Below, piece after piece: positions 7,910-49,032 of a DNA stretch of 64,000 bases. The notes under the pieces were generated by a model, which saw only the letters and a program-made list of their open reading frames with translations, did not search any database and was not told the DNA's origin. The stretch is taken from positions 9,300 through 73,299 of IMG/VR virus record IMGVR_UViG_3300034760_000025; one strand, given 5' to 3'. How positions within the stretch are numbered: the stretch's first letter is position 1; each line of letters starts with the position of its first letter. The DNA is from a virus. Both the position numbers and the translations under genes were made by a program.

Positions 7910-7965
7910 CCCAGCGACCAGTAGCGCGCCGCTCGCCGCGGCCCGACAGCAGAGGGGCGGCAGTA

Positions 7966-14571: not shown

Positions 14572-14855
14572 CGACAGTCGACCAGGCCACGGCGGCCGCG
14601 CGGCGCCTCGCGCGGTCCGCCGCCGCCGCGAACACCGGTACCGGGTCCTGCCCGTACCCGGCCGACGGGGCACCCGTGCAGTCCGCGGCCCGCCGGGCGT
14701 GGCTACGGACGTACCTCCACATCCGCCCACCGAAGCCGGGCGACGTGTCCTACGACGACGACCTCGCGGCCCTCGCCGCCGGCGACGACAGCACCGACGA
14801 CCCCACCACCACCGTCGCCGACCAGGGCGCCCTCACGACAACCCAGCAGCAGTGA
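14568..14855 (+). CDS. Rmf/CrpP-fold-like small protein
   Basis: ATGA-coupled to the giant gene; SCPY...ARRAWLRTY resembles the Rmf CPY...R..WL.GW signature. Confidence 0.55.
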   Translation: MTTVDQATAAARRLARSAAAANTGTGSCPYPADGAPVQSAARRAWLRTYLHIRPPKPGDVSYDDDLAALAAGDDSTDDPTTTVADQGALTTTQQQ

Positions 14856-14893
14856 CAGCGGCCCCGGCCGCCCCCACGGAAGGCGGCCCGACG

Positions 14894-15241
14894 ATGCTCG
14901 GCACAGTGCAGGTATGGCGGCGCGGCGACGGCACCATCGAACTGGGTGAGGCCGCCCCGATGATCGGCGTGTCTCTGGGGCTGCTCAACGATCGGGCCGC
15001 CCACGAATTCCTGACCGTCCGGGAAGGGCTGGTGACCTTCGCCGGCACTGGCCCCGACCAGGAACCCCGCGAAGTCCGGTACCGGGCGGTCGGCTTCCAA
15101 GCCGCGGGCATCGCCCCGGCCGTCGGCGACGCCGCAATGAAACTCCCCGAAGAGGAGCGGGACGCCCGCCTCGACGGGGAGCTGTTCGCCGCCCTCGCCG
15201 CCGCCGAAGGCGGGTACGTCCTCCTACAACGGGTCACCTGA
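14894..15241 (+). CDS. Hypothetical protein
   Basis: ATG 14894 after GAAGG; coding-like codon use. Confidence 0.65.
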   Translation: MLGTVQVWRRGDGTIELGEAAPMIGVSLGLLNDRAAHEFLTVREGLVTFAGTGPDQEPREVRYRAVGFQAAGIAPAVGDAAMKLPEEERDARLDGELFAALAAAEGGYVLLQRVT

Positions 15242-23195: not shown

Positions 23196-23240
23196 CCGGA
23201 CCGGTCACCGGCCCGCACAACCCCAGAAGGAGAACAAGCG

Positions 23241-23618
23241 ATGGCGCTTCGCGACTACATCGTCCACGAGCTGGGCGACCAGCTCGACCGTAAGCCGACC
23301 CTGCCCGCGTCCGGCGGGAAGGTCGGCGACCCGTGCATGTTCGGCCGCCGGCCCGGAGTCCTCAAGACCGATCAGGACGCGGTCACGAACCGGGCCACGA
23401 TCAAGTTCAACGGGTCGCACCGCTTCAACGTTCACGCGGTCACCGCCGGCGGCAACTCGGCGATCGCCCCCGGCGACGACCTGTTCTACGACCCGTCCCC
23501 CGGGGCGACCAACCCCAACATCAACAAGGACGTGACGAACGGCCAGTTCTTCGGCGTAGCGGCGGAAGCCGTCGCGTCCGGGGGCAAGGCCGTCATCGTC
23601 GTGGACTTCGTGAGCTGA
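23241..23618 (+). CDS. DUF2190-like capsid cement protein
   Basis: GDPCMFG..GV, GDDLFY, FFGVAAEAVASG; lies between protease and capsid. Confidence 0.75.
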   Translation: MALRDYIVHELGDQLDRKPTLPASGGKVGDPCMFGRRPGVLKTDQDAVTNRATIKFNGSHRFNVHAVTAGGNSAIAPGDDLFYDPSPGATNPNINKDVTNGQFFGVAAEAVASGGKAVIVVDFVS

Positions 23619-23635
23619 GCGGAGAACCGACCAAG

Positions 23636-24832
23636 ATGACAAGCACCCTGTTCGCCCCGGTCGTCGAGACCCTCGACGCCTCCCAGGCCGGCACCCCGGC
23701 CCTGTTCGGCTCCGACGGCATGGCCAAGAAGGCCAGCTTCGCGGCCGGCATGATGCACCCCCGGATCGGCGGCGACCCCCGCAAGTACAAGATGGCGATG
23801 TACGAGGCCGAAGAGCTCGTCGGCGACGTCATCGCCGGCCGCCGGCCGATCTGGCGTTTCACCGAGGCCATGACCACGGACCTGTTCCCCCTCGTCCACG
23901 CCGACAGCCTCGACCGGCAGATGTACGGCGCCTACTCCGCTGCGCCGGTGTCGTGGTCGCGGTACGCCCGCCGGGGCAAGGTCAACGACTTCCGGGAGGT
24001 GAAGCGGTTCGCGAACACGGGCATCCGCGGCCTGCTGAAGATCGTTCCGGAGCTGGCCGAGCATGAGCGGCGCACTACCGAGGAAGCCGTCTACAAGTAC
24101 TCGGTCAACAAGTACGAGGCCGGTTTCGGCATGTCGTTCGAGCTGATGGTCAACGACGATCTGGACCAATTTGCGCGGCTGCCGCAGGACCTGGCGCAGT
24201 CTGCGATCGACACCGAAGAGAACTTTGTGGCCACGCTCATCGCGGGCCCGTCCGGCCCGAACGCCACGTACTACAACCTCGCCAACGACAACGTGGCGAC
24301 GTCGAACGCGCCGCTGACCCGGGGCAGCCTCCAGGACGCGCTCACCCGCCTCTTGAAGCGCAAGGATGAGCGGGGCAACCCGATCACCGTGTCCGCGGTG
24401 GAGCTGGTCGTCGCGCCCGGTCTGATGATGACCGCCAACGAGATCATCGGTGCGACGCAGTACCGGATCGTGGGCGACAACGGCAACGTCACGATCATCT
24501 CCGGGAACGGCGTCGCGGTGAACCTCACCCTGTCGGTCAACTACCAGATCGGGGCGGTGGCGACCACCGCGAACGCTGACACGTCATGGTGGTTGTTCGC
24601 CAACCCGGGCAGCGCCCGGCCGGCCCTCGAGGTGGGTTTCCTGCGCGGCTACGAGCAGCCCGCCCTGTACGAGAAGATCCCGGACATGCGCCGGTTCGGC
24701 GGCGGCGCCGAGGTCGCGTGGTCCTTCGAGCACGGCGACGCCCACAAGAAGGTCCAGCACGTGCTGGGCGGGTCGTTCGTCGACGCGAAGATGACGATCG
24801 CCAGCCGAGGGGACGGGTCCACCGTCTCCTGA
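23636..24832 (+). CDS. Major capsid protein (Mu gpT-like)
   Basis: EAMTTDLFP, VNDFREVKR, YSVNKYE..FGMSFELMVNDDL, LEVGFLRG; ATG 23636. Confidence 0.88.
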   Translation: MTSTLFAPVVETLDASQAGTPALFGSDGMAKKASFAAGMMHPRIGGDPRKYKMAMYEAEELVGDVIAGRRPIWRFTEAMTTDLFPLVHADSLDRQMYGAYSAAPVSWSRYARRGKVNDFREVKRFANTGIRGLLKIVPELAEHERRTTEEAVYKYSVNKYEAGFGMSFELMVNDDLDQFARLPQDLAQSAIDTEENFVATLIAGPSGPNATYYNLANDNVATSNAPLTRGSLQDALTRLLKRKDERGNPITVSAVELVVAPGLMMTANEIIGATQYRIVGDNGNVTIISGNGVAVNLTLSVNYQIGAVATTANADTSWWLFANPGSARPALEVGFLRGYEQPALYEKIPDMRRFGGGAEVAWSFEHGDAHKKVQHVLGGSFVDAKMTIASRGDGSTVS

Positions 24833-25371
24833 TGACGGAGATCAGCAGCAAGGCCCGTGAGGCACTCGCCGCGCTGACCGCCTACGAACGCGAGACGAAC
24901 CGGGTTCTCGTGATCCTGGCAGAGCTACTCGTCGAGCAGAACGACCTGCTCCGCGAGCAGCTCGAGGAACAGCGCAACAGCGCCGCTGTCACGGTCAACA
25001 ACGCCGCGCCGGCCGACACCCCCGCGGGTGCCGGCCGGCCGGCCGCCGGGCACACCCCGGCCGCCGGGCACACCCCGGCAGGGAAGAAGGAAGCCGCTGT
25101 GCGACTCACCGAACCCGACGTACCCCCGGCCGACGACGACGGCCACGGTGGCCGGCCACGCCCCGGGACCAGCTCCCCGCCGGCGGACCCCGACGATGCG
25201 CCGGCCCCCGCCCCGGCCCGTGTGGCCGCCAAGGCCACCGAGCCGACCACCGACAAGCCCACCACCGGCGCCGCGCCCGACGGGCCGGCCCGCCCGGCCG
25301 CCAAGGCCAAGGCTGCCCCGGCCAAGACCACCAAGGCCGCAACCAAGGCAGGGAAGGCGGGCAGCCGATGA
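24832..25371 (+). CDS. Low-complexity Ala/Pro/Lys-rich head-associated protein
   Basis: Overlaps the MCP stop; coiled N-terminus, PAAGHT tandem repeat. Confidence 0.65.
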   Translation: MTEISSKAREALAALTAYERETNRVLVILAELLVEQNDLLREQLEEQRNSAAVTVNNAAPADTPAGAGRPAAGHTPAAGHTPAGKKEAAVRLTEPDVPPADDDGHGGRPRPGTSSPPADPDDAPAPAPARVAAKATEPTTDKPTTGAAPDGPARPAAKAKAAPAKTTKAATKAGKAGSR

Positions 25372-25619
25372 CAGCCAAGACCCGCGCGGCGTACGTCGGT
25401 GACCTCGCGATCGCCGGCAGGGCCATCCTGGTCGGCGGGACGGTCACCGTGCCGAACACCAAAGTCACCGCCGCGTCTTTGATCATCCCGGCTATCCAGA
25501 TCCCGGGTGGCACCCCCGGCGCGGTGTACGTGTCAGCTCGCGTCCCGGGCGTCTCGTTCACACTCACGTCGACATCGAGCGCCGACACCAGCACTGTCGG
25601 CTACTCGATCGAGCCGTAA
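25368..25619 (+). CDS. Small head decoration/fibre-like protein with RAAYVGD N-terminus
   Basis: GGTVTVPNTKVTAAS...GAVYVSARVPGVSFTLTSTSSADTSTV beta-rich domain. Confidence 0.7.
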   Translation: MTAKTRAAYVGDLAIAGRAILVGGTVTVPNTKVTAASLIIPAIQIPGGTPGAVYVSARVPGVSFTLTSTSSADTSTVGYSIEP

Positions 25620-25674
25620 CGCCGGCCGCTTTTCACCCTTCCCGCGGGCCGGGCCCCGCACCAACCACCCATGT

Positions 25675-25744
25675 GCGGCGCCCGGCGCCGGAAAGGCGGC
25701 ACCTCATGCCCGGACCCCGCAGCCGCGCGGCGTACCTTGGCGAC
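25675..25744 (+). repeat. Shared leader/start element, copy A
   Basis: GCGGCGCCCGGCGCCGGAAAGGCGGCACCTCATGCCC then the RAAYLGD codons. Confidence 0.85.
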
Positions 25745-27500
25745 CTCGCCCCGTACCTCGACGACCCGTCATCGATCAACCCCCGGGACGTCAAGTACGG
25801 AGCGGCAGGCACCGGCACGAAAGACGACACCGCCGCCCTGGTGAAGGCCCACGCCGCTGCGGTCGCCGCAGGCGGGTTCGTCCAGCTCCCGGCCCGGCAC
25901 GTACCTGCACACCGGGTTTTCGATCACCTCGTCGCTGCGCGGCTCACCGCTGGGCAAGACGGTCCTACGCGGCCCACAGATCACCCTGTCGACGTCGGGT
26001 ATCGAGCTGTCCGACCTGAAGATCGTGTCGTCGACGTCAACAGCGGTGATATCCGCGCACTGCGCCGATGTCCGGTGGCAGCGGGTCGAGGTCAGCCACG
26101 AAAACGGGGTGACGGACCACCTCGCGTGGAACGCGTACAACGTCGACCGGCTGCAGGTCATCGGTTGCAAATTCGGCATCGGGGGGTTGCAACTCAGCCT
26201 GTGCGACGACTTCGTCATCAACAACAACTTTTGGGACGCGCAGTACCTCAACACCAACGAGCCGTGTCACATCAGTACGCAAAGCTCGGGTGTTTTCACG
26301 AACAATACGGTGACGAACACAGCGACGGACGCGGTTGACCTTTACTCGTCAGGTCACCGGTGCGTGGTCGCCAACAACCGCTTTATCGGGCTGCGGGGCG
26401 GCGCCGGTCTTGAATGCAAAGTCACCATGTCGGACATCCCTGGTAACTCGTCGTCGCCCGGGAATGTGTTCGAGTCGACGGTTATCGCGAACAACGTTTT
26501 CCGGGACTTCAACGGCTCGGTGACGTCGACGCGGACCGGGATCTACGCGTCGTATGTCGACAGCCGGGCGGCGCCGGCGTTCGCGATCGCCGAGGCCAAC
26601 CGGGGCATCATCATCACCGGGAACATCTTGGCCGACTTCAACGAGACGGACCCCGGTAACGGGGCCATCGTGTCGTACCAGGCCATCGTGTTCCACGGCA
26701 GCAACGGCATCGTCGCGAACAACATCGTCCGGAACATGCGGGCGTGGAACGCGGCCACCCCCGTCGGCATCGCGCTGTTCTCCGAGAACGCGGATGTCAC
26801 CGCCGGGGCGAAGTGCATCGGTGTGACCGTGCAGGGCAACAACATCGCCGGGCTGGAAGGCGTCACCAGCTACGGCATCCGGGCCGGGAACCTCGACTAC
26901 TGCAACATCACCGGGAACACGATCCGGACCGATGACGTCGCCGGGCGGTCCCCGAAGTACGGCATCGGCATAACCAACGGTGCGTCGCTGAACCACTGCA
27001 GGATCTCCGACAACATCATTCAGTGCAACCAGACCAACGCCCAGGCCATTGTGGCGACGAGCACCACCACCACGTTTACCGAGTGCGACATATCGGGGAA
27101 CATGATCCGGGACTGCGGGATCAGCATCTACAAGGCGATCCGGTGCAGCTTCACAAATAACACGTTCAACAACGCGACAAACGGTGGGGCTTTCAACCTC
27201 GGCATCGCCGGGGTGACGTGCCTCGACATCCGCATCATCGGTAATCACTTCACGATGAACGGGGCGGCCAGCGCTATCGTCCTGACGAACGTCGACGGGT
27301 TCATCGCGAACGGGAATACGTTCAAATCGGTTACCCGGTCAATCTTCGCATTCAGCGTGACGAAGAACGGGGTCGTAACGGGGAACATCGCCCGCACCCA
27401 GTCGGTCGGCTCCACCGTCCTCATCTTCGACGCCAGTGTCAGCGGCGGCGACCAGGCCACCACGTACATCGACGCCAGCTCAAACAAGATCCTCACCTGA
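25706..27500 (+). pseudogene. Right-handed beta-helix (pectate-lyase-like) spike/depolymerase with one extra C at about 25893-25895
   Basis: YGAAGTGTKDDTAAL..QLPA continues as GTYL... only in the +1 frame, which runs into ORF 26025-27500 with N-x-I/F beta-helix repeats; could be a sequencing error. Confidence 0.8.
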
Positions 27501-27530
27501 TGGAACCGCGGCCCAACGCGACCCACCACG

Positions 27531-27568
27531 CGCGGCGCCCGGCGCCGGGAAGGTAAGGCACCCACATG
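27531..27568 (+). repeat. Shared leader element, divergent copy B
   Basis: CGCGGCGCCCGGCGCCGGGAAGGTAAGGCACCCACATG. Confidence 0.7.
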
Positions 27569-27886
27569 GCGCGCTGCGAATCCGGCACGCTCACCCCAAC
27601 CACCCCGGCCACGGTCGTCATCGACGACTCATGGCCGGGCGGCGTGAGCATTTCCCGCCTCAACGAGGGCCCGATCGCGACGATCTGGTACCGCCTCGAC
27701 GGCACAGACCCCACCGTCGGTGGGGATGACAGTTTCCCCTGCCTCGACACCGTCCACATACCCCACCCGGCAGACGGTGAGGCCGGGCTTCCCCGAAACG
27801 AGCAGGTCGAAGTCCGGATCATCTCGTCCGCCGCTGTGCAGTACACGGTTGAGGGCAACCCGGTGTGGAAGCGGGTGACGTCATGA
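27566..27886 (+). CDS. Small beta-rich hypothetical protein
   Basis: IWYRLDGTDPTVGGDD...VRIIS; follows leader copy B. Confidence 0.75.
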   Translation: MARCESGTLTPTTPATVVIDDSWPGGVSISRLNEGPIATIWYRLDGTDPTVGGDDSFPCLDTVHIPHPADGEAGLPRNEQVEVRIISSAAVQYTVEGNPVWKRVTS

Positions 27887-30561
27887 CCGCCCGGCACCAG
27901 GTACGGACTACGCCCGGCGCGGGCGCCGTGACGCCGGAGCAGCTCGCCGTCAAGGCGGAGCGGCTGACGACGACTGGCACGAAGACGGGGGCGTACACCG
28001 CGGCGGCGAACGAGCTGGTGCCGTGCAACCCCGCCGCCGGCGCGTTCACGGTCACCCTTCCCGACTCGACGGCAGCCGGTGTCGGCGGGACGGTGGTGGT
28101 CCGGAAGACGGACGCGACGGCTAACGCGGTTACCGTGCAGCGGGCGGGGACCGACACCATCAACGCGGTGACCACGCCGGTCACGCTGACCCTCGCCGAC
28201 GAAACCGTCGTGTTCACGTCGAACGGGGCCGGGAAATGGGCGATCTCAGCCGGGCACAAGTCCACGGCGGCGCTCGACGGCCGGTTTGCCGCACTCACCG
28301 GTTACACCTACGAGCGAGCCTTCCCGGTGTTTTTCACCAATACGGCAAGCGAGAAAGCGGACCTGTATTTCACCGGCGCAGTCAGCGCCGAGATCGAGGT
28401 AACCCTGGTCGGGCAGTTCAACGCCGCGAACGCTAACGGTGTGCTCCGGGTGATCTACAGCCTCGCCGGTTCGGCGGCCGGGGTGGTGTACGACAACACC
28501 GCTACGGTCGTCGCCGCGCAGGGCAGCCTCCCGGCCCATTTCGGCCTCGTCGGTCCGGTCTGGGACGCCACCAACTCCCGGTGGAAGATCACCATAGTTC
28601 ATCGCACCGCGTCGGCTAACTCCGTTGCTGTGCGGGTGCGCTGGCTGACCCAGAACACCACGCAGAGCGCATCTATCCGGGACTCGATCGGTGTGTCGTC
28701 GGTCTACACCACCGACACCAGCACGATCCCGGCGCCGACGCCCAGCGCCGTGCAGAAAGGCGAGCTGTTCATCGACCCGCGCGCCGCCGTCTACGGGGCT
28801 GTCGGTGACGGCGTGGCCGATGACACGGCCGCCGTGCTGGCCGCGTTCACCGCGGCGAACGCGACTACCAGGGCCGGCGTCGCCGGCACGATCCTGCACC
28901 CGGGCGCCACCGTCATCCTGCGGGGGAAGTTCAACCTGGCCAGCATCGCCAGCGCGATCCCTGTACGGTGCAATGTCCTGTCGGCCGGGGCTGAATTCAT
29001 CATTCCGGCCGCGTACGCCGGGACGGCCGTGCTCGTCGGGCACTCGACGTCGGGCAGCATCTTGCAGGCCGCCCGGATCGTGCTGCCAGACGTCATCAAG
29101 CCGACCGGGTCCGCGGTGGTGGCCAGCTCCGTCGGTGTGGTTGTGCAGAACGTGTACAGCTCCGAGATGACTTTCGGGCGGGTCGCGTACTTCGAGACCG
29201 GCATCTGGATGACCGGCCTGGGCAACGGAACGGTGTACAACCGCGTGCACCTGGGGTGGATCTCCTACTGCAAGGTGTCGATTCAGCTCAAGCCGCAAGC
29301 CGCCGGTTGGGTCAATCAGAACGCGTTCGTCGGCGGCGGCATTCAGCAATCGGTGGGCTTCCACGGCGGCACCCGTCTCGCCGGTTTCCGGCACCTGGTC
29401 ATGGACGGTAACGGCATCGCCGCGATCGACGGAAACATCTTCACCGGCGTGTCGTTTGAAGGCGACGTTTCCGCGGAGTGTTTTTACATCCACCACGCAT
29501 TTCAGAACACATTCAACGGATGTCGATTTGAGGCCGGCACGCTAGGCAAGGCCATGACCGTATCCGGGAACACCATCACCTCGACGGCGCACGGGCTGGC
29601 CGTCGGCGACATGATCATTCCCACGTCGTCAGTCGAGCCGACCGGGATGGTCAACCTGACCCCGTACTACGTGGTGTCGGTGCCCGACGCCAACACGTTT
29701 ACGATGGCCCGCAGCAAGGGCGGCACGGCCATCGTGTTCGGGTCGTCCGGCACCGCGGTCACGTTCGCCCGACCGCACCGCATCTACATCGACACCAGCG
29801 GCATCGGTACAGCGGACAATGTGATCCGCGACATGGTCAACCCGCTGTACTGGCTGGACATGGTGCACAGCACCCCGATCGCCTCGGGCAACAAGGTCGA
29901 GACGTCGTCGCTACACATCGCGAGCCGGTACGCGCCCGAGGACCTGCCGCTGTACCGGGCCCGAAATTCAGCCGGCGTGCTCGCCACGGTCCGGCCGCTG
30001 TTCGCGACGTACGCGCCGGGTGTCAACCCGCAGGAAGCCCCGGACGGTTGGGCGGTGGCCCTGTCCGACCGCGGGATCCTGTGGCGCAACGGGCAGCTCA
30101 TCGGCGCGGGTACCGGTTCACCGGAGGGGGTCGTCACCGCACCGCCCGGGTCGGAGTACCTCAACGCCAGCGGCGGCACCGGTAGCACCAAATGGCTCAA
30201 GGAGTCCGGGACCGGCAACACCGGATGGGCCCCGGTGCCGGGCCTCGCCCCCCGGACGACGTCGGTGACAACGTCAGCGGCACCGACACCCTCGGCGGCG
30301 ACCGACGACGTGTACCTGCTGACCGCGTTGGCGCAGTCGGCGACGTTCGGCGCACCGACCGGGTCGCCCGGGTCCGGACAGCGGCTACTCATCCGGATCA
30401 AGGACAACGGCACCGCCCGCACGTTGGCGTGGAATGCGATCTGGCGGCCGATCGGTGTGCTGCTGCCCACGACCACGGTGGCTACCAAACTGCTGTACGT
30501 CGGGGCGGTCTACAACGCCGCCGACACGAAGTGGGACGTCATCGCCGTGACGCAGGAATAG
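27883..30561 (+). CDS. Multidomain spike/fibre protein with a pectate-lyase-3-like beta-helix
   Basis: YGAVGDGVADDTAA; TAHGLAVGD...YYVVSV module; GSPEGVVTAPPGSEY...GTGNTGW; C-terminal KWDVIAV. Confidence 0.8.
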   Translation: MTARHQVRTTPGAGAVTPEQLAVKAERLTTTGTKTGAYTAAANELVPCNPAAGAFTVTLPDSTAAGVGGTVVVRKTDATANAVTVQRAGTDTINAVTTPVTLTLADETVVFTSNGAGKWAISAGHKSTAALDGRFAALTGYTYERAFPVFFTNTASEKADLYFTGAVSAEIEVTLVGQFNAANANGVLRVIYSLAGSAAGVVYDNTATVVAAQGSLPAHFGLVGPVWDATNSRWKITIVHRTASANSVAVRVRWLTQNTTQSASIRDSIGVSSVYTTDTSTIPAPTPSAVQKGELFIDPRAAVYGAVGDGVADDTAAVLAAFTAANATTRAGVAGTILHPGATVILRGKFNLASIASAIPVRCNVLSAGAEFIIPAAYAGTAVLVGHSTSGSILQAARIVLPDVIKPTGSAVVASSVGVVVQNVYSSEMTFGRVAYFETGIWMTGLGNGTVYNRVHLGWISYCKVSIQLKPQAAGWVNQNAFVGGGIQQSVGFHGGTRLAGFRHLVMDGNGIAAIDGNIFTGVSFEGDVSAECFYIHHAFQNTFNGCRFEAGTLGKAMTVSGNTITSTAHGLAVGDMIIPTSSVEPTGMVNLTPYYVVSVPDANTFTMARSKGGTAIVFGSSGTAVTFARPHRIYIDTSGIGTADNVIRDMVNPLYWLDMVHSTPIASGNKVETSSLHIASRYAPEDLPLYRARNSAGVLATVRPLFATYAPGVNPQEAPDGWAVALSDRGILWRNGQLIGAGTGSPEGVVTAPPGSEYLNASGGTGSTKWLKESGTGNTGWAPVPGLAPRTTSVTTSAAPTPSAATDDVYLLTALAQSATFGAPTGSPGSGQRLLIRIKDNGTARTLAWNAIWRPIGVLLPTTTVATKLLYVGAVYNAADTKWDVIAVTQE

Positions 30562-30571
30562 GAGGCCACCC

Positions 30572-32095
30572 GTGTCAACGATCACCGCGGCCCCCGGCGG
30601 CGGCAACTGGTCGGCCGGCGCCACCTGGGTTGGTGGCGTCGCGCCGACCGCAGCCGATGACGTCGTCCTCGACGCCACGGCGAACGGCGCCACCAACGTC
30701 GTCATCGACGCCGGCGCTGTCGCCCGGTCCCTCGACTGCACCGGGTACCCGGGCATCCTTACCCACACCGCCGGCGTAGCTCTGACCCTGGGCGATGCCA
30801 CCGCGGGCGCCGGCTCGGTGGCGCTCAAGATGGTCGCCGGGATGACGTACACCCTGGGCAGCGCGACCACCTCAACGGTGGCGTTCGTGTCGACGTCGGC
30901 GACGCAGCAGAGCATCACCACCGGCGGTAAAACCCTCGGCAACTGGACGATCAACGCCCCCGGGGGCAGCTACATCCTGGGCGACGCGAACACCGTCGGT
31001 ACCACCTCAACGGTCACCGTCACCGCGGGCACCTTCAACACGGGCACCTTCGGCTGTTCGTGGGGAAACTTCGCGTCGAGTAACACGAACACCCGGTCGT
31101 TGATCTTCGGCACGGCGGCTATCACGCTGACCGGCGGGGGCGGCACGTTCGACGTTCTGACCACGACCGGGCTGACGCTGAGCGCCCTGTCGTCAACGAT
31201 CAACATGCCGGCAAACGGCTACTTCAAGGCGCTCGGCTCGTACGGCACGGTGACGTGGCTGGCGCTCGGGCCGAACGGCCAGTCACAGCCCTTCACCTGT
31301 GTCAACCTGACCATCGTCGGTGGGTCCGCAAAGACCGGCGACTTCAACACCGCCGGGAACATCACGATCACCGGCACGCTGACCCTGGCCGGGAACTCGG
31401 CAGTCAACCGGATCAAGGTGCACTCGTCGTTGCCCGGCAACCCCCGGTCGCTCATCGCGGCGAACGTGGCGGTCAGCAGCACCGACTTCCTCGACATCGC
31501 CGGCGCCGGCGCCGGCAACTGGGACCTGTCGGCGGCCACCGGCGGGGTCGGCAACTGCGGCGGGAACACCGGCATCATCTTCACCCCGGCGGCAACCCAG
31601 ACGCACGTGGCCGGGGCGGGCGGCAACTGGTCAGACGCCGCCCAGTGGACCAGCCGGGTGCCGCTGCCCCAGGACGACGTCGTGGTCGACGTCAACACCA
31701 CGGGCACCCTGGTCGCGGACATGCCCCGTTTGGGCCGCAGCATCGACTTCACGGGGTTCGCCGGCACCGCGGCGTTCACCTCACAGATCACTCAAATGTT
31801 CGGGTCGCTGATCCTCGACGCCGCTATGACGATCACCGGGACGTTCGCGTTGAGCTTGTCCGGCCGCGGTAGCCACACGGTCACGTCGAACGGCAAGACC
31901 CTCACGCAACCGCTGACAGTCAACGCGCCGGCTATGGGCACCTACACGCTGCGCGACGCCCTCACCACCGCGGGCGCGCTCACGCTGACGCTGGGGACGC
32001 TGGCCACCGCTGGCCACCCGGTGGGTTACCTGTCTCTCGTGGTCACGGGCGGCGTTCTGCGGGCCGGCGCCGGCCCGTTCGCCGCGTTCTTCTGA
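30572..32095 (+). CDS. Gly/Thr-rich beta-solenoid virion protein
   Basis: Two GGNWS...W...P...DDVV motifs; GGAGG RBS before GTG. Confidence 0.75.
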   Translation: MSTITAAPGGGNWSAGATWVGGVAPTAADDVVLDATANGATNVVIDAGAVARSLDCTGYPGILTHTAGVALTLGDATAGAGSVALKMVAGMTYTLGSATTSTVAFVSTSATQQSITTGGKTLGNWTINAPGGSYILGDANTVGTTSTVTVTAGTFNTGTFGCSWGNFASSNTNTRSLIFGTAAITLTGGGGTFDVLTTTGLTLSALSSTINMPANGYFKALGSYGTVTWLALGPNGQSQPFTCVNLTIVGGSAKTGDFNTAGNITITGTLTLAGNSAVNRIKVHSSLPGNPRSLIAANVAVSSTDFLDIAGAGAGNWDLSAATGGVGNCGGNTGIIFTPAATQTHVAGAGGNWSDAAQWTSRVPLPQDDVVVDVNTTGTLVADMPRLGRSIDFTGFAGTAAFTSQITQMFGSLILDAAMTITGTFALSLSGRGSHTVTSNGKTLTQPLTVNAPAMGTYTLRDALTTAGALTLTLGTLATAGHPVGYLSLVVTGGVLRAGAGPFAAFF

Positions 32096-32100
32096 CCCAC

Positions 32101-32175
32101 CCCCACCCGCGGCGCCCGGCGCCGGAAAGGCGGCACCTCATGCCCCCACGTACCCGCGCCGCGTACGTCGGCGAC
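32101..32175 (+). repeat. Shared leader/start element, copy C
   Basis: 66 bp identical to 34818-34883, then 1 mismatch and 8 further matches. Confidence 0.95.
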
Positions 32176-33954
32176 TACAGCCGGATTCCCGTCAGTCAGG
32201 ACCAGGTGACCGGGCTGCCGACGTCGCTCGGCAGCAAGGTCGATCGGGACAGCATCGTCGTGAACGTGGCAGACCACGGCGTCGACGCCACCGGCGCCAC
32301 CGACTGCACCACCGCGCTACGCACGATCCTGCAGAGCGGCGCGAAGCGGATCCTGATGCGCGGGACGTTCCTGGTGAACATTCCCAATGGTGGGAGCCTG
32401 GCGTCGTTCACCGGGGTCACGGGCCTGCACATCGACGCGAGTAGCGCAACGATCAACAACCCGGTCGACTACGGCAGCCAAGCCTTCACGTCGGTTTTCC
32501 TGCTGAATGGCTGCACCAACACCCGTATCGAGATCGGCCAGTTCACCGGGTTCCACCTGGCTGATCTCTACACGAACCTCGGCCGGCAGGGCGTCATCGT
32601 GGTCCGGGCGATCAACGGATGCGCCGGGGTCACCGTCAAGGCCAACATCACCAACGCGCGGTATGGGGTGCAGTCCGGGGAGTACGCCGACCCGACCAAA
32701 GGCGGGTGCACCGACTTCGATTTGGACATCCGCGGCTCGTATATGGGATACCCGATTGCCCTGTACCGCGCTGAGGGCCTGCGAGGGCGGGTGCGGGTGG
32801 ACAACTTCGACCGGGCGGTCTACATCGCCGGGGTCAGCAACGTCGACCTCGACGTGCAGTTCAAGAATCCGATCAGCGGCGGCGACACCGTCTGCCTGAT
32901 CACCGACGCCATGACCGGGGTGGGCACGTCGAAGGGGTGCTCCAACGTCGACATCCGGGCCACGGACATGGGATCCACCACCATGCCGGTGTCGTGCATG
33001 GTCGCCGGAATCATGCTGAGCCGCGTCGACCCGGGCACCGAATTCGAGAACGTTCGGGTCCATGTGTCGGTCCGATCGTCGGACACCGTCGCGTACCAGA
33101 TCGGCGCTTTCCGGGTCCACTCCGGTGCGAACCAGGTTCAGCCGTCGTACCCGTTCAACTGGGAACAGACGATTGTGCTGCGCAATATCACCGTGTCCGG
33201 GATCATCGACCGGTCCGGGCAGTCGATGGCGTCCGAGTCGGTCGGCCCGCTGTACGTCAACACGTGGGACACCGGTACGCACTACGCCACGGTGACAGGG
33301 CTGTCGATCGAGGACCTGACGATCATTCCCGCTGCCACCGGCGGCGTGAATGCCCGGATCACCTGCCCGGGGTTGCAGGACAAGATTTCGTTCCGCAACT
33401 TCACAGCGCCTAGGGTGCCCATCGTCATCAACACGGGCCTCGACGCCACTGTCGAATTCATCGGATCCGCGATGGGCCCCATGTCCACCGACGGGTCGGC
33501 AGTGGTTTCCCTGATCGGCAGCACTGTTGCGTCGGTCGACACGAACATCGCCGCGAACCTGCGGCACGTCAACTCCACGGTCGCCGGCGGCGGCGCCCTG
33601 ATCCGCACCAAGCAGATCGAGCTGACCCTGACCGGCACGTCCGTCACGTGGGCCGCGGCCATCCCGGCCGGTGCGATCGTGCTGGGCGTCACCGGCCGGA
33701 TCACCCAGGCCATCACCGGGGCCACCGGCTACAAGGCAGGGGTGTCCGGCGACGACGACCGGTTCGTTGGCCGTCCGGATACCACTCTCGGGGCGACGTT
33801 CGACCCGGCGAACATGGCTGTGGAGGAGACATTTCTCCGGTACTACCTGGTCAGCACCGCGATCCTCGTCGGCGGCCTGGCGGGCACCACGTTCACCGGC
33901 GGGAAGATCCGGCTCACGCTGCACTACATCCTGCTGTCCGCCGCGACAAGCTGA
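32140..33954 (+). CDS. Beta-helix spike/depolymerase-like protein, paralogue 1
   Basis: MPPRTRAAYVGD; HGVDATGATDCTTA; C-terminal IPAGAIVLGV..RITQAITGATGY (DUF2793-like, from memory). Confidence 0.8.
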   Translation: MPPRTRAAYVGDYSRIPVSQDQVTGLPTSLGSKVDRDSIVVNVADHGVDATGATDCTTALRTILQSGAKRILMRGTFLVNIPNGGSLASFTGVTGLHIDASSATINNPVDYGSQAFTSVFLLNGCTNTRIEIGQFTGFHLADLYTNLGRQGVIVVRAINGCAGVTVKANITNARYGVQSGEYADPTKGGCTDFDLDIRGSYMGYPIALYRAEGLRGRVRVDNFDRAVYIAGVSNVDLDVQFKNPISGGDTVCLITDAMTGVGTSKGCSNVDIRATDMGSTTMPVSCMVAGIMLSRVDPGTEFENVRVHVSVRSSDTVAYQIGAFRVHSGANQVQPSYPFNWEQTIVLRNITVSGIIDRSGQSMASESVGPLYVNTWDTGTHYATVTGLSIEDLTIIPAATGGVNARITCPGLQDKISFRNFTAPRVPIVINTGLDATVEFIGSAMGPMSTDGSAVVSLIGSTVASVDTNIAANLRHVNSTVAGGGALIRTKQIELTLTGTSVTWAAAIPAGAIVLGVTGRITQAITGATGYKAGVSGDDDRFVGRPDTTLGATFDPANMAVEETFLRYYLVSTAILVGGLAGTTFTGGKIRLTLHYILLSAATS

Positions 33955-33993
33955 GCCGCCCGTCCCACGTCCTCACAGGAAAGGGGCCCCCTG

Positions 33994-34350
33994 GTGGCCG
34001 CCACCGCAGAGCAAATCAGCACCATGCGGCTTCTCGCCGCGGACACCTACGCACCTGGGTACCTACTCACCGACGGGCAGTACGGGGAGCTGTTCGACCT
34101 GGAGGGCGGCAACGTCAAGCTCGGTGCGGCGGCCGCTCTGGAGACCATCGCGACGTCCGAGGTGCTGGTAGCGAAGAAGATCACCACCCAGGACCTGAGC
34201 GTCGACGGGCCGGCGGTCGCGGAGGCGTTGCGCAAGTCGGCGGCGTTGCTCCGCTCCCAGGTCGCCGGGGTCGACGAGGCAGCCGCCGCGGAAGCGGACG
34301 GGTTCGGGTTCGACTACGTCGATTTCCCCGTCTACGGCGGGTGGGGGTGA
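33994..34350 (+). CDS. Head-to-tail adaptor
   Basis: MRLLAADT...LLTD...AAAALETIATSEVLVAKKITTQDLSVDGPAVA. Confidence 0.75.
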   Translation: MAATAEQISTMRLLAADTYAPGYLLTDGQYGELFDLEGGNVKLGAAAALETIATSEVLVAKKITTQDLSVDGPAVAEALRKSAALLRSQVAGVDEAAAAEADGFGFDYVDFPVYGGWG

Positions 34351-34354
34351 CCTG

Positions 34355-34792
34355 GTGCCGTTGCCGAACACGCGGGTGATCCACCCCCGTTTCCTGCAGC
34401 ACCATGCAGCGTCGGTCGCGGGTGGGATGACAGCGCGGGTGCGGCTACGCCGGCCCGACACGGTCGAGGTCCGGGACGTTGAGACGGGCCGGACCGGGTT
34501 CGAGTCGGTCGCCGCGTACTACGACGGGCCGGCGCGGGTCCAGGCCGGCGGCGGCGGGCCACCGCAGCAGACCGGATCCGACCAGCGGATCGCGACCGGC
34601 AGCTACCTGGTCGCGGTGCCGATCGGGGCCGGGGTGCCGGAGCACGACGACCTGGTCGACGTCTACGAGTGCCCCGATGACCCGGTCGCGGTCGGGCTGA
34701 CCCTGCACGTCGTCGACATCCCCACGGCCAGCATCGTCCTACAGCGCAACCTCCGCTGTGAGGTACACACTCCAGCGCCTGCCACCTCCTGA
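34355..34792 (+). CDS. Head-to-tail stopper (DUF6093-like)
   Basis: YYDGPARVQ, YLVAVP, DDLVDV..CPDDP..VG..L.V. Confidence 0.75.
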   Translation: MPLPNTRVIHPRFLQHHAASVAGGMTARVRLRRPDTVEVRDVETGRTGFESVAAYYDGPARVQAGGGGPPQQTGSDQRIATGSYLVAVPIGAGVPEHDDLVDVYECPDDPVAVGLTLHVVDIPTASIVLQRNLRCEVHTPAPATS

Positions 34793-34817
34793 CCAACCTC
34801 CGGGCGCACGCCCAATC

Positions 34818-34892
34818 CCCCACCCGCGGCGCCCGGCGCCGGAAAGGCGGCACCTCATGCCCCCACGTACCCGCGCCGCGTACCTCGGCGAC
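34818..34892 (+). repeat. Shared leader/start element, copy D
   Basis: 74/75 identical to 32101-32175. Confidence 0.95.
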
Positions 34893-36647
34893 CTGAACCC
34901 GTTCCGTAACAGTGCCGACGGGAGCGTCAATGTCACGAATGCTCCGTACAACGCCGACCCGACCGGGGCGGTCGACGCCACTGCGGCGTTCCGGGCCGCG
35001 GCGGCGTCGGGGGCGTCGCGCATCGTCGTTCCGGCCGGCAACTACCTGGTGTCGAGCGTCGCCAGCGGCACGCCGCTGCTGAATTTCGTGAACCGGGACG
35101 GAGTCACGATCGACGCCGGCGAGGCGACGATCACCAACCCGACGTCGTACACCCTGGACACGATCACGCCAATGTTCCTGTTCGACAACTGCCGCAACGT
35201 GCGCGTGACCCTGGGCGCCTACGTCGGGTACACCCTGCCGACGCCGGAGACGCACCACGGCTACCGCGGTGGCACCCTGGTCAGGCTGATCAACGGGTGC
35301 GACACCGTCAAGGTCGAGGCGAAGATCACGAACGCCCGGTACGGCATCCAGGCCGGCGAATACGCCGACCAGACGAAGGGCTACAACCGCAACATCGACG
35401 TCAAGCTCCGCTGTTTCTTCGTCGGCTACCCGGTGGCGCTGTACCTGGCCGACAATGTGCGGTACGACGTCGACGCGGACAGCGTCCACCGCGCCGTGTA
35501 CCTCGCCGGGTGCCAGGACGTCCGCGGCGTTGCCCGGTGGAAAGACCAGTACATCGCCGATATCGCGACTCTGATCACCGACGCGAAGACGGGCACCGGG
35601 ACGTCGAGGGGGTGTTCCAACCTTGACGTCACGTCGATCGACAAGGGCTCGACGGTCACGACCGCGTCGACGACGTGCTCCGGCATCGCGCTGTCCCGGG
35701 TCGACCCGGGCATCGTGTACGAGAACATCAAGATCAAGGTGCACGCTAAGAGTACCGACGCGGTGTCGCCCCGCACCGGCGGATTCACCATGGTATCGGG
35801 CGCGAAGGCGCTCACCACCCCGGTCGCTGACTACAACTGGGAACCGTCGATCACCATCCGCAACGTGAGTGTGTCGGGGGTCCTCGACCACTCAGAACAG
35901 ACCACCGAAGGCAACACCGCCGGCGACGTGTTCGTACGCGCCTACGACACCCTCGTGGCGCATTCCGCCACCATCGAGAACCTGTCCTTCGAGGACCTCA
36001 TCATCCGGCAGTCGTCGGGGAACACCCGCGCGCTGTGGCTCGAGGCCCCCGGCATCGTCAACAGCGGGGTGCAGTTCCGCAACGTGCAGGCCCCGAACGC
36101 GAAGCTTGTCCTGCTGACGAACGCGACCGTCCCGACGACCTTCGAGGGCTGCAAGCTCAAGGAACTCAACGTCGTGGGGGTGACCGCCGGCAGCCGTGTC
36201 GTGCTGCTCCGGTCGAGCATTGACGCGCTCACGGGCACGACCGGCGACAACATGAACACCGACACCGTCGGGAGTTCTATCGGCGGGGCCGGCGCGTTCA
36301 TCCGGCAGAAGCAAATCACCCTCGACCTGGTCGGCGCCTCGACGACCTGGTCGGCGGCCATCCCCACCGGCGCCCTGGTCCTCGGTGTGCAGGGCATCGT
36401 CAAAGAGGCGGTCACCGGCGCGTCGGGCTACCAGGTCGGCCCGTCCGCCGAGCTGACCCGCTACGTCAACACGAACACGGTCACGCTCAATAGCACGTTC
36501 GGGCCGACCAACCAGTCAGCCACCGAGACGCCCCGGTACTACCTCGCCACCACCGACCTGGTCGTAACCGCGAAAACGGCGCCGTTCACCGATGGGCAAC
36601 TGCGGCTGATCGTGACGTACCTAGTTTTCCCCGCTCCCACGTCCTGA
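34857..36647 (+). CDS. Beta-helix spike/depolymerase-like protein, paralogue 2
   Basis: MPPRTRAAYLGD; ADPTGAVDATAAF...VPAGNY; colinear with 32140-33954 (ITNARYG.Q.GEYAD.TKG, GCSN, LSRVDPG, NWE). Confidence 0.82.
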   Translation: MPPRTRAAYLGDLNPFRNSADGSVNVTNAPYNADPTGAVDATAAFRAAAASGASRIVVPAGNYLVSSVASGTPLLNFVNRDGVTIDAGEATITNPTSYTLDTITPMFLFDNCRNVRVTLGAYVGYTLPTPETHHGYRGGTLVRLINGCDTVKVEAKITNARYGIQAGEYADQTKGYNRNIDVKLRCFFVGYPVALYLADNVRYDVDADSVHRAVYLAGCQDVRGVARWKDQYIADIATLITDAKTGTGTSRGCSNLDVTSIDKGSTVTTASTTCSGIALSRVDPGIVYENIKIKVHAKSTDAVSPRTGGFTMVSGAKALTTPVADYNWEPSITIRNVSVSGVLDHSEQTTEGNTAGDVFVRAYDTLVAHSATIENLSFEDLIIRQSSGNTRALWLEAPGIVNSGVQFRNVQAPNAKLVLLTNATVPTTFEGCKLKELNVVGVTAGSRVVLLRSSIDALTGTTGDNMNTDTVGSSIGGAGAFIRQKQITLDLVGASTTWSAAIPTGALVLGVQGIVKEAVTGASGYQVGPSAELTRYVNTNTVTLNSTFGPTNQSATETPRYYLATTDLVVTAKTAPFTDGQLRLIVTYLVFPAPTS

Positions 36648-36719
36648 CCTTCGCCACCTCGACCAACACGGCCGGCGCCGACGCGCGCCGGCCGTTCCGC
36701 GTACCTGGGGGTGATCAGC

Positions 36720-37103
36720 GTGGTGACTGTGTGGTTCGACGGCGTTGACGAGATGAACACGGTGCGCCGGGAGATGCGGGCCGCTACGGGCCGGGTCGGC
36801 GCCCTTGGTGCGGCGGTCGTCCGGAAGAGCGGCCTGCAGGTCGAGGCGACCGCGAAGCTGTTCTCCCCGGTCGACACCGGCCACCTCAAAGCGACCATCG
36901 GCGCCCGGTTCGAGGGCGACGGCCGGCACGGGGAGATGGAAGCGGTCATCTCGGCGACCGCTGAATACGCGCGGTATCAGGAATTTGGCACCAGCAGGCA
37001 GGCCCCTCAGGCATTCATGGGCCCGGCGCTCGACCGGGTCGCCCCGGGGTTCGTGGCGGCCTGCGAAGCGCTGGGCGGCATTATCGGCGGCGGTTCGGGC
37101 TGA
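36720..37103 (+). CDS. HK97 gp10-like neck protein
   Basis: AKLFSPVDTGHLK...AEYARYQEFGT...PQAFMGPA. Confidence 0.85.
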   Translation: MVTVWFDGVDEMNTVRREMRAATGRVGALGAAVVRKSGLQVEATAKLFSPVDTGHLKATIGARFEGDGRHGEMEAVISATAEYARYQEFGTSRQAPQAFMGPALDRVAPGFVAACEALGGIIGGGSG

Positions 37104-37109
37104 CGCGAA

Positions 37110-37934
37110 CTACAACAGGGCGGTGGCCAGCCGCCGATGCCACGTCGGCCGGTTGAAGGCCCACGCGGGCAACTCGACCAGGGGCAGGCCGTACTCCTCG
37201 TAGAGGCGGGTCTTGCGCTGGCGGCGTGCGGTGTAGGTCGACGAGTTGAGCACGCCCCACACCTCGATGTAGGTGCCTCCGACGAGGAAGTCAGCGCGGT
37301 ACCGGCGGTCGAAGGGCAGCGGAGGCTCGACCTCGTGAGCGAGGCTCTGGGAGGTCAGCCAGTCGTCGACGCGGCGCTCGTAGTCTGACCTGGCTTGGTG
37401 GCCGTCGGTGCATGTCCACCGGCGGCCGCCCGCCCAGCCGCCGGGCCGCACCTCGATGCCGTGTTCGCGGCACAGCTCGCCGATTAGCGAAGCGCTCACG
37501 CCGTGTCGTTTGGCGATCCGCGTCAACGACGCGCCGCCGTCGTACGCGGCTTGGAGCTGTTCGGGTGTCGGTAGGACGACTTCGCGGCCGCGGCGGCGGG
37601 TGCCCCAAACGGTGGGCGCGGTGATGTCGTGCCGGTTCAACCAGGCCGGTACGGCGGTGTGGTCGACGCCGTACCGGCCGGCGATCGCCCGGTAACTGAG
37701 GTGTTCGTCGTGCACCATCCGCTGCAGGTCGGCCCTGGTCGGTGGGTCGATGCCGCGGTTCGCCAGCCCGCGGTCGGCGCTGCGCCGTGGGATCCCGTGC
37801 GCGGCAAGCCATCTGCGGATGGTGATGTGCCGCACGCCAAAGCGGCGGCCGATATCCCTGGTGGTCATGCGCTGGTCGATGTAGAGAGCGCGCAAAGCGG
37901 CTGCGTCCGGCCTGTTGGGTGTCACTGGTGCCAT
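37110..37934 (-). CDS. Free-standing triple-HTH plus PD-(D/E)xK-type endonuclease
   Basis: Three HTH repeats, then RSDYERRVDDWL...EP...ADFLV...IEVWG...RK..Y; TAGGAT -10-like box 7 nt before the ATG. Confidence 0.72.
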   Translation of the reverse strand: MAPVTPNRPDAAALRALYIDQRMTTRDIGRRFGVRHITIRRWLAAHGIPRRSADRGLANRGIDPPTRADLQRMVHDEHLSYRAIAGRYGVDHTAVPAWLNRHDITAPTVWGTRRRGREVVLPTPEQLQAAYDGGASLTRIAKRHGVSASLIGELCREHGIEVRPGGWAGGRRWTCTDGHQARSDYERRVDDWLTSQSLAHEVEPPLPFDRRYRADFLVGGTYIEVWGVLNSSTYTARRQRKTRLYEEYGLPLVELPAWAFNRPTWHRRLATALL

Positions 37935-37983
37935 GAGGTCAATCCTATGTCTAGTGCGGAACATGCCGCAGTTGGGGGGCGGC

Positions 37984-38439
37984 GTGGCCCGTTCTGACCT
38001 TGAACCGGAGGTGCTGCACGCGGACGGTATCGCCGTGCTGCTGCGGGCCCGGCTCGACGAGCTGGGGTGCGACTTTCCCGTGTACCGCGATGGGCGGATC
38101 CCCGCGACCCCGTCGTACCCGTACTACGTCGTGTGGGGGTCCGCGGGGACCCCGTACGCGCCCGCTGACCGGCTCGCCGGGTACGGCGGGGAGGTCACCA
38201 GCACCCACCAGATCACCGCGGCCGGTTTGAGCGTCGACGACGTGATCGGCGCCGTGGGCCGGGCCCGGTTCGCGTTGCACCGCCGGCGGCCGGTCGTGCC
38301 GGGGCGTCGGGGTGGGGAGCTGACCCACGACGGGACACCGGGCCGGCCCGTGCCGGACCCGCAGCGGGAGGCCGGCGGCCAGCAGGTGCTGGCGCTGCCG
38401 ATGTTCTTCCGTCTCACCACATCACCGAAACGAGTATGA
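37984..38439 (+). CDS. Tail terminator-like protein
   Basis: VYRDG..P....PYYVVW, QITAAG; position before the major tail gene. Confidence 0.65.
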   Translation: MARSDLEPEVLHADGIAVLLRARLDELGCDFPVYRDGRIPATPSYPYYVVWGSAGTPYAPADRLAGYGGEVTSTHQITAAGLSVDDVIGAVGRARFALHRRRPVVPGRRGGELTHDGTPGRPVPDPQREAGGQQVLALPMFFRLTTSPKRV

Positions 38440-47830: not shown

Positions 47831-47846
47831 TAGGGGGCAGACAGAC

Positions 47847-49013: not shown

Positions 49014-49032
49014 CCCGGACGGAGGCACCACC

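Follow-up and report, generated by a model that had tools for sequence, protein, structure and literature searches.

Why do about 10 kb of fiber and spike genes lie between the capsid and neck genes of a siphovirus that still has an ordinary set of tail genes behind its tape measure gene, and why do several of them begin with the same stretch of DNA and the same short peptide? The phage is known from a linear viral contig of 89.7 kb in IMG/VR (completeness estimate 89%, ~70% G+C), and the window analyzed here comprises bases 9300–73299 of that contig, 64,000 nucleotides in all; near-identical contigs come from three metagenome runs of three studies, one run on soil and two on biocrust. The repeated DNA, which we call the leader, sits in front of start codons, and the peptide, which we call the tag, forms the N-termini of several of the encoded proteins. 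A preliminary description of the window had noted both and had read the tag as a common docking device for interchangeable payloads. Its observations are confirmed here with corrections, and its interpretation is partly supported, as regards the tag and the modular swapping of what follows it. On balance we favor the reading that the tag is a virion-anchoring arm that has been reused for beta-helix spikes, with the leader as a separate start cassette; the analysis suggests that this soil actinomycete phage displays extra spikes on its head or neck.

Both elements are far beyond chance. The pattern R[AS][AS][YF][LVI]G[DE] occurs four times in the six-frame translation of the whole contig, each time within residues 6–13 of a plus-strand gene (starting at 25368, 25706, 32140 and 34857). 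The form observed is RAAY[VL]GD, in which the exchange of leucine and valine is the only residue change among the four copies, and the codons inside it vary synonymously (GCG/GCC, GGC/GGT/GGA, TAC/TAT, CTT/CTC). The leader core GGCGCCCGGCGCCGG has exactly four exact copies in the window and in the whole contig, all on the plus strand and starting at 25677, 27534, 32111 and 34828; allowing up to two mismatches raises the number to 16, where shuffled sequences give 6.8 ± 2.9. The leader and the tag are separable, because the small gene g106 (27566–27886, plus strand; 106 aa; phrog_32632, E 3e-9) has the leader with an unrelated, untagged N-terminus, and g83, the first of the tagged genes, has the tag without the palindrome that characterizes the leader. 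Thus the four leader sites of the preliminary description are borne out, and so are its four tagged N-termini, except that the gene starting at 25706 is not one open frame, as it contains a 1-nt insertion.

The native carrier of the tag in the window is g83 (25368–25619, plus strand), which encodes an 83-aa protein with TRAAYVGD at residues 5–12 (nt 25380–25403) followed by a beta-sandwich. It had been described as decoration-like; instead, it is a K1-lyase_C domain (PF24146, E 2e-22), a tailspike tip domain, located at the head-fiber locus, and it is 51% identical to the tagged protein at the same locus in a related contig, L009. The other three tagged genes encode spikes. Spike 1 (25706–27500, plus strand) combines the tag SRAAYLGD (nt 25721–25744) with a Beta_helix body (PF13229, E 2e-11). 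Spike 2 (32140–33954, plus strand; 604 aa) starts with the tag TRAAYVGD (nt 32152–32175), continues as a disordered linker up to residue ~34 and then has a tailspike beta-helix, with a tail-fiber domain at the C-terminus, and spike 3 (34857–36647, plus strand; 596 aa), with the tag TRAAYLGD (nt 34869–34892) and a beta-helix, is its paralogue (41% identity). Spike 1 and spikes 2 and 3 belong to unrelated families, and the tag has therefore been grafted more than once. In an AF2 monomer model of spike 2 (mean predicted local distance difference test, pLDDT, 90.7) residues 1–34 are disordered (pLDDT <50), there is no folded N-terminal domain, and a right-handed beta-helix begins at about residue 40; Foldseek matches the model with probability 1.0 to the Sf6, HK620, AM24 and Fri1 tailspikes. 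For the C-terminal domain the match is the R4C baseplate fiber chain 8gtc_T, at 35% identity. On this model the tagged spikes resemble tailspikes whose N-terminal arm is free. From a set of 5.8 billion proteins, 33 homologues of spike 2 were obtained (33–46% identity), which align from about residue 40 and all have other N-termini; tblastn with spike 2 returned only distant tailspikes and a C-terminal fiber domain. A Tat or Sec signal was considered for the N-termini and dropped, since no hydrophobic region follows the tag.

The tag extends well beyond the window. The capsid protein is shared at 56–62% identity with eight IMG/VR contigs, and in seven of these (all but L011) the gene that follows the capsid gene and a coiled-coil gene, CC, starts with the tag motif and is usually translationally coupled to CC. 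Three IMG/VR contigs added by pattern scans bring the tagged genes there to 10, and with four metagenome contigs and five actinomycete genomes the number outside the window is 19. Their consensus is M-x(2-6)-[RKN]AAYYG[DT]KP, and the motif with the window form included, x[RK](A/S)AY[YVL]G[DT], lies 3–7 residues after the start methionine. A metagenome scan for AAYYGxKP gave 57 loci, mostly unrelated Sel1-repeat or tannase-like proteins with an internal match, and only four of them, L048, L081, L089 and L096, add tagged N-termini not already counted (L085 repeats the L010 contig); a codon-restricted search of IMG/VR for RAAY[LV]GD gave 16 matches, none of them at an N-terminus. In a scan of reference genomes this capsid gene turned up on seven actinomycete chromosomes, and the tagged gene accompanies it on five, those of Dactylosporangium fulvum, Streptosporangium sp., two Nonomuraea sp. 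and Spirillospora sp. Where the context is available, the tagged gene follows the capsid and CC genes in about 20 genomes.

The 19 genes encode 65–192 aa where complete (that of L043 is cut by the contig end), and at least four unrelated classes of payload stand behind the tag in these small genes, so that the search for different payloads behind one tag, proposed as a check in the preliminary description, has been answered in its favor. The first is K1-lyase_C (g83 and L009). The second is a beta-sandwich with the motif LDFASIAAG (L007, L012, L039, L043, L103, L105 and L107) that matches the C-termini of 650–800-aa PHROG proteins. The third is a short coiled coil (L006, L010, L013, L040 and others) matching phrog_6994/4366 'head fiber protein' and having atlas neighbors with PF11133, in versions of only 65–70 aa; PF11133 itself gave no match in a Pfam scan of the tagged proteins. 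The fourth is a 192-aa protein of unknown type (L008). None of the relatives carrying the tag has the leader, and because the tag differs synonymously among its copies and is present in 19 genes without the leader, it has been selected at the protein level. Judged from sequence, the peptide is an old protein-level signal; what stands of the proposed common docking tag is thus a conserved module, separable from the leader, and its docking to capsid or neck would be a further step.

Comparison with the plain relatives also accounts for the layout of the locus. Their gene order is cement, capsid, CC, tagged gene, adaptor, DUF6093 and gp10-like gene, with the 118-aa adaptor gene directly 3′ of the tagged gene, and the window departs from this plain order by inserted blocks at two points, behind the tagged gene and behind the DUF6093 gene. 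The slot between tagged gene and adaptor is an insertion hot spot in relatives too (L006 11769–17985, L008 12093–19136 and L011 11766–13458), where it holds large untagged fiber-like genes (716 and 1247 aa in L006) and g106-like open reading frames (ORFs); the latter were recognized by eye at the same place in L006 and L008 and were not detected by tblastn.

The payloads themselves can be followed into another lineage. L034 is a locus at one end of a 130-kb metagenome contig, and it encodes homologues of spike 3 (684 aa, 61% identity), of the body of spike 1 (683 aa, 61%) and of spike 2 (46%). It also matches two untagged window genes: the 507-aa Gly/Thr-rich fiber protein (30572–32095, plus strand) is 63% identical over its full length to an L034 protein of 504 aa, and the C-terminal 150 aa of the 892-aa beta-helix fiber (27883–30561, plus strand) match a separate 160-aa L034 gene (60% identity over residues 751–892). 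Four L034 spikes, the three window homologues among them, share an N-terminal domain of ~100–150 aa beginning MARVVGPAE that the 504-aa protein lacks. The alignment of spike 3 starts at residue 11, immediately after the tag, which corresponds to L034 residue 99, and both proteins read G-D-L at the junction. The window locus displays a clean anchor-for-anchor swap between phage lineages with a defined junction (spike 3 residue 10–11 equals residue 99 of the L034 spike). One payload with two anchors, together with one anchor with many payloads, indicates modular exchange, and at the sequence level these swaps are direct evidence for it; the payload swapping proposed earlier is upheld in that the L034 homologues (46–61%) carry the other ~100–150-aa N-domain.

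Several further arrangements were seen in these loci. The tail of the 892-aa fiber has undergone fusion or fission (27883–30561 in the window versus 932–3480 in L034) within a conserved cassette of spike, 160-aa and ~505-aa genes. At L034 9146–13477 the four spikes are interleaved with a small terminase gene and a large-terminase-like gene that has a faint LAGLIDADG match (a possible intein). L031, a phage contig of 88 kb that is unrelated, has two large fiber genes between its capsid and neck genes (10001–15114), one for a spike of 1018 aa and one for a GDSL-lipase fiber of 681 aa; the spike is a homologue of spikes 2 and 3, and both fibers carry an N-domain of the type MxxARLVGPDE. Spikes between capsid and neck genes are thus not unique to the window phage. 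Both L031 and the window encode large ADP-ribosyltransferase-domain proteins upstream.

Spike 1 departs from its siblings in its reading frame. The tag and ~60 residues lie in one frame (ORF 25706–26338) and the beta-helix in another (open 25845–27500). The frame changes between 25894 and 25896, and a 1-nt insertion can be placed in the C run 25893–25895 because the 61%-identical L034 spike of 683 aa reads VVLPAGTYLH across the break. In the stretches that they cover, which include the frameshift site, contigs from the three metagenome runs of three studies do not differ from the window, so the break is not a private assembly error and the broken allele circulates in those samples. A programmed frameshift was also considered and dropped: CCG-GCC-CGG would need a +1 shift, and there is neither a slippery motif nor a stop codon. 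As its frames are read here, spike 1 is currently inactivated, and the three-spike enzyme 'arsenal' of the preliminary description has to be reduced accordingly, one of its three tagged spikes being frameshifted.

The leader has a constant anatomy: the 13-bp palindrome GGCGCC-C-GGCGCC, then the strong Shine-Dalgarno sequence GG(A/G)AAGG, then ATG 9–12 nt later, every copy lying 16–57 nt 3′ of the preceding stop codon. Copy A (25666–25705, plus strand) comprises a C-rich tract, the palindrome at 25677–25689, GGAAAGG at 25690–25696 and a 9-nt spacer. Copy B (27523–27565, plus strand) is divergent, with the palindrome at 27534–27546, GGGAAGG at 27547–27553 and a 12-nt spacer. Copies C (32100–32139) and D (34817–34856), both on the plus strand, have their palindromes at 32111–32123 and 34828–34840 and GGAAAGG at 32124–32130 and 34841–34847. 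Three of the four copies run on into the coding region. With the coding part included, C (32100–32175) and D (34817–34892) are identical at 75 of 76 nt and alike even at synonymous sites through codon 9; A matches each of them at 54 of 76, and the similarity of B is limited to ~45 nt. Beyond the 76 nt the genes behind C and D have only 57% DNA and 41% protein identity, which indicates recent copying or gene conversion of the leader region.

Each leader stands at the 5′ edge of an inserted block; three of the blocks are the single spike genes, and the fourth, which comes second in the row, is made up of g106 and the genes for the 892-aa and 507-aa proteins. A possible role in recombination is read from this placement and the near-identity of C and D alone. 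In the Logan assembly graphs of all three runs a 37-nt leader segment (25675–25711) is a separate unitig, with a depth ~3x that of its flanks in the best-covered run (X1), and contigs break at it as expected for a three-copy exact repeat; no novel or recombinant junctions at leaders were seen in the three runs. An exact search of IMG/VR for the leader gave one match, by chance and inside a coding region. The sequence 5′ of g83, which is the 3′ end of the CC gene, has no palindrome and yet is similar to the leader at 47 of 76 positions; this partial similarity to the 3′ half of the leader suggests that the cassette was born by duplication of the g83 start region. The 6-1-6 palindrome is as plausible a protein-binding site as an RNA hairpin with a 6-bp stem. 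We regard the leader as a phage-specific start cassette, which may act both as a start signal and as portable homology.

These observations can be arranged in a single scheme. The tag is native to a variable small fiber or decoration gene whose place, among a clade of siphoviruses and prophages of actinomycetes, is behind the capsid and coiled-coil genes. Three arms on a probably trimeric payload (the payload types, being tailspikes, fiber tips and a coiled coil, point to trimers) would dock onto a conserved head or neck component. In the window phage, arm and ribosome-binding region have been grafted onto three beta-helix tailspike genes of depolymerase type from two unrelated families, so that polysaccharide-binding or -cutting spikes (spikes 2 and 3, and formerly spike 1) may be mounted by the reused arm at the small-fiber site in addition to the normal tail tip. 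The leader probably gives each block its own translation start and could possibly also be a regulator site or an RNA end; its ~40–76 nt would supply homology, with gene conversion or block exchange having recently passed via copies C and D.

For the docking site we give most weight to the capsid, at a little under an even chance; the neck comes second, and a site elsewhere or no docking at all is only slightly less credible than the neck. Capsid-surface decoration is favored because the locus directly follows the capsid gene and because there are tiny coiled-coil versions of 65–70 aa. A neck collar is kept in play by the adjacency to adaptor genes and by analogy to podovirus adaptor spikes and phi29 gp12. 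The version in which the tag is a decoration arm at capsid symmetry sites and the head is coated with interchangeable depolymerase tailspikes is more probably wrong than right. A co-fold of the capsid protein with g83 scored 0.00 in a run without controls and is counted neither for nor against binding. The CC protein could be the partner of the tag or a scaffold-like protein.

Several points weigh against the anchoring arm and its start cassette. First, both the virion association of the tagged proteins and the docking site of the tag are things that we infer. Second, the tag has been found on a large spike in no other genome, so the spike fusions, one of which carries the frameshift, could be recent and of unproven function. 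Third, the window tag deviates from the clade consensus, with Y changed to V or L and KP lost. Fourth, the 'head fiber' label of the coiled-coil payloads comes from weak PHROG matches (E 1e-5 to 1e-8) to a coiled-coil motif that is found in tail fibers too. Finally, the four leaders fold no more stably than shuffled sequences (RNA folding z-scores +0.25 to +0.79), the hairpin sequence is invariant across copies and so offers no covariation signal, there is no promoter-like site in 23000–38000 and no T-tract terminator at the leaders, and Rfam has no family there; the suggestion that the leader standardizes expression and drives recombination finds no backing in any of these features.

Of the alternatives, the one that survives best holds that the tag docks the spikes onto another fiber or the tail tip, in the branched manner of K1-5, SP6 and KP32, with the 892-aa fiber or a baseplate protein as the hub and the position among head genes incidental. 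N-terminal 'conserved peptides' of 7–11 residues are the documented attachment of secondary depolymerase spikes to an anchor protein (PMC6872550; PMC13352976), the C-terminal domain of spikes 2 and 3 resembles the R4C baseplate-associated fiber chain, and the homologous spikes in L034 adjoin terminase genes rather than head genes. Nonetheless, the plain relatives carry the tag on a 65–120-aa protein directly after the capsid gene and have no extra fiber gene before the adaptor that could serve as the hub, and Pfam and PHROG scans of the region reveal no T4gp10-like branching domain. We consider tail docking improbable. Somewhat less probable still is the proposal that the tagged spikes are soluble enzymes freed at lysis, with an unrelated role for the small tagged protein. 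Free phage depolymerases exist, the decay of spike 1 suggests that the spikes are dispensable, and the spike region has a G+C content of 63–69% against 70–75% for the genome, as recently acquired accessory genes do; but such a proposal leaves unexplained why three spikes of two families exchanged a large N-terminal anchor for the peptide of a neighboring structural gene.

Two further alternatives appear to us very unlikely. The peptide might be a mere by-product of a copied leader with its first codons, an initiation region spread by gene conversion, with no function of its own; the synonymous identity of C and D would fit this, and the resemblance of the CC gene end upstream of g83 to the leader 3′ half would fit duplication of the g83 start at the DNA level. 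However, the peptide is kept with synonymous differences in the 19 leaderless genes of other genomes, g106 has the leader and no peptide, and spike 1 retains RAAYLGD even though only 54 of 76 nt agree with C and D. A capsid-targeting or processing signal, of the type of the T4 capsid-targeting sequence, routing proteins to the prohead interior or its protease in place of anchoring them outside, would suit a ~10-residue N-terminal peptide common to unrelated proteins encoded beside capsid and protease genes, and the basic tail of the neighboring CC protein could bind DNA, but the payloads are typical external receptor-binding parts (tailspike beta-helices, fiber tips and a fiber coiled coil) and trimeric spikes of ~190 kDa (estimated from ~600 aa per chain) inside the head are implausible.

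The remainder of the window is conventional in outline, with a siphovirus gene order by Pfam and PHROG family scans. The large terminase (4114), portal (5693), a 2393-aa ORF (7390–14571), MuF (15284) and protease (21315) genes are followed by a plus-strand gene for a 125-aa cement/decoration protein (23241–23618; Phage_cement_2, formerly DUF2190; PF09956, E 7e-5, just below the curated cutoff). The placement of DUF2190 in the preliminary description is thereby corrected to a cement gene upstream of the capsid gene, and homologues of 36–51% identity lie 5′ of the capsid gene in nine related loci (L006–L013 and L040). The major capsid protein (397 aa; Phage_capsid_4, E 1e-30) is encoded at 23639–24832 on the plus strand; its ORF is open from 23333, and the starts of homologues correspond to the methionine at 23639. 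Its relatives in IMG/VR and actinomycete genomes are 53–62% identical. The CC gene (24835–25371, plus strand; 178 aa) overlaps the g83 start with its stop codon (ATGA), and its protein has an N-terminal coiled-coil helix containing QNELL, a Pro-rich disordered region with (V/I)x(L/I)xEP motifs and a basic tail rich in Pro, Ala and Lys. Pfam, PHROG and atlas searches with it gave no match. The gene also precedes the tagged gene in L006–L013, L039, L040 and L043, with one or two xEP-type motifs.

The inserted blocks lie between the capsid gene and the Neck1/HK97 gp10-like tail-completion gene (36711–37103, plus strand; PF04883, E 4e-8; phrog_5, E 8e-19) that marks the end of the region, in agreement with the ~10 kb of fiber genes noted before; an ordinary Dit, Tal and minor-tail set is still present 3′ of the tape measure gene. 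Between the blocks are the plus-strand genes for the putative 118-aa head-tail adaptor (33994–34350; phrog_18316), with homologues of 41–55% identity in L007, L009–L013, L039 and L040, and for the 145-aa DUF6093 neck-region protein (34355–34792; PF19586, E 2e-21). The row of neck and tail genes is broken by an antisense HNH/HTH endonuclease gene (37110–37964, minus strand; phrog_8446, E 2e-22), and then come the major tail protein (38909), tape measure (40604), Dit (44618), Tal (45598), three further tail genes (46868–50721) and the lysin (52266). The G+C content falls to 63% over spike 1 and g106 (26001–28000) and is 66–69% in the rest of the spike region, compared with 70–75% elsewhere, which fits recent acquisition. 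Among 50,697 phage records, Megablast found none that matches the region, related-locus searches seeded with spike 2 and with DUF6093 found no relatives, PDB sequence searches with the capsid protein and the L006 fiber gave nothing useful, and tblastn of the L006 fiber against phages had no match.

If the tag does anchor proteins to the head or neck, it would be a natural minimal display signal of ~9 residues that evolution has already put to use on at least six unrelated payloads, full-size depolymerase spikes among them. A siphovirus could then add host-surface enzymes away from its tail tip, and the tag would be a testable handle for engineering actinomycete phages; should the capsid be the anchor, the clade would own a natural 9-residue plug-and-play display tag for any trimeric payload. 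Related prophages reside in culturable hosts (Dactylosporangium fulvum NRRL B-16292, D. salmoneum JCM 3272, and Nonomuraea, Streptosporangium and Spirillospora strains), so the docking site can be found by experiment. The prophage of D. fulvum NRRL B-16292 (L101) lies at 3.66 Mb, and L104, L105 and L107 are those of Nonomuraea or Spirillospora strains.

Both elements have counterparts in known systems. The leader invites comparison with the start-associated sequences (SASs) and extended SASs (ESASs) of Cluster K mycobacteriophages, which have the 13 bp consensus GGGATAGGAGCCC 3–7 bp before the start codon, occur in 11–19 copies at non-structural genes only, and are preceded by an inverted repeat in about half of cases (PMC3203893). 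Like these, it is a repeated, phage-group-specific motif over the ribosome-binding position near an ATG, with all copies in one direction (PMC3203893). It differs in sequence, with GGAAAGG 9 nt before the ATG, and has four copies found only before inserted structural or fiber genes, three of them extending into the coding region. The promoter early stem-loop (PeSL) cassettes of T4-type phages are stem-loop repeats flanking accessory genes, with homology for modular shuffling, a sigma-70-like early promoter and a working terminator (PMC2839356, PMC4122927). The leader shares with them the short repeated form with a possible stem-loop, the position by accessory genes in a plastic region and the proposed use as portable homology; unlike them, it has no promoter-like site or T-tract terminator, and recombinant junctions are absent from the three metagenome runs. 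By analogy, it would work like a PeSL and looks like an ESAS or SAS, while falling under neither definition.

For the tag, phi29 offers a comparison on two counts. Its head fiber gp8.5 (PF11133) is a trimeric fiber whose gene adjoins the capsid gene, and the coiled-coil payloads of the relatives resemble PF11133-type clusters; its pre-neck appendage gp12 is a spike of beta-helix fold carried on the neck, and there are weak matches of spikes 2 and 3 to phrog_4775 'pre-neck appendage'. However, phi29 is a podovirus, the window proteins have no significant sequence relation to its proteins, and gp8.5 uses a folded N-terminal base, not a 9-residue peptide, to bind the capsid. Adenovirus fibers work on the principle proposed here: a conserved aromatic N-terminal peptide of the trimeric fiber docks to a capsid component, the penton base, while shaft and knob vary; this is a eukaryotic virus without homology, and the likeness is one of analogy only.

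The closest parallel is with K1-5, K1E, SP6 and the Klebsiella phages of the KP32, KP34, Menlow and phiK64-1 types, which have conserved N-terminal docking peptides on secondary tailspikes (PMC6872550; validated in PMC13352976). There too a short, group-specific N-terminal peptide (7–11 aa or somewhat longer) is carried by several beta-helix depolymerase spikes with exchangeable payloads, and its binding partner at the tail is an adapter or a T4gp10-like branching domain. Pfam and PHROG scans of the region and the tail genes show no such domain, although no HHpred-type or structural search was made. The window phage differs from those systems in being a siphovirus, in having the peptide native to a 65–190-aa protein whose gene comes behind that of the capsid, and in the location of its spike genes within the head and neck genes. 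What is new relative to the known docking-peptide spikes is thus a peptide native to a head-module gene of a siphovirus clade, with no branching domain found and with its spikes encoded in the head–neck module.

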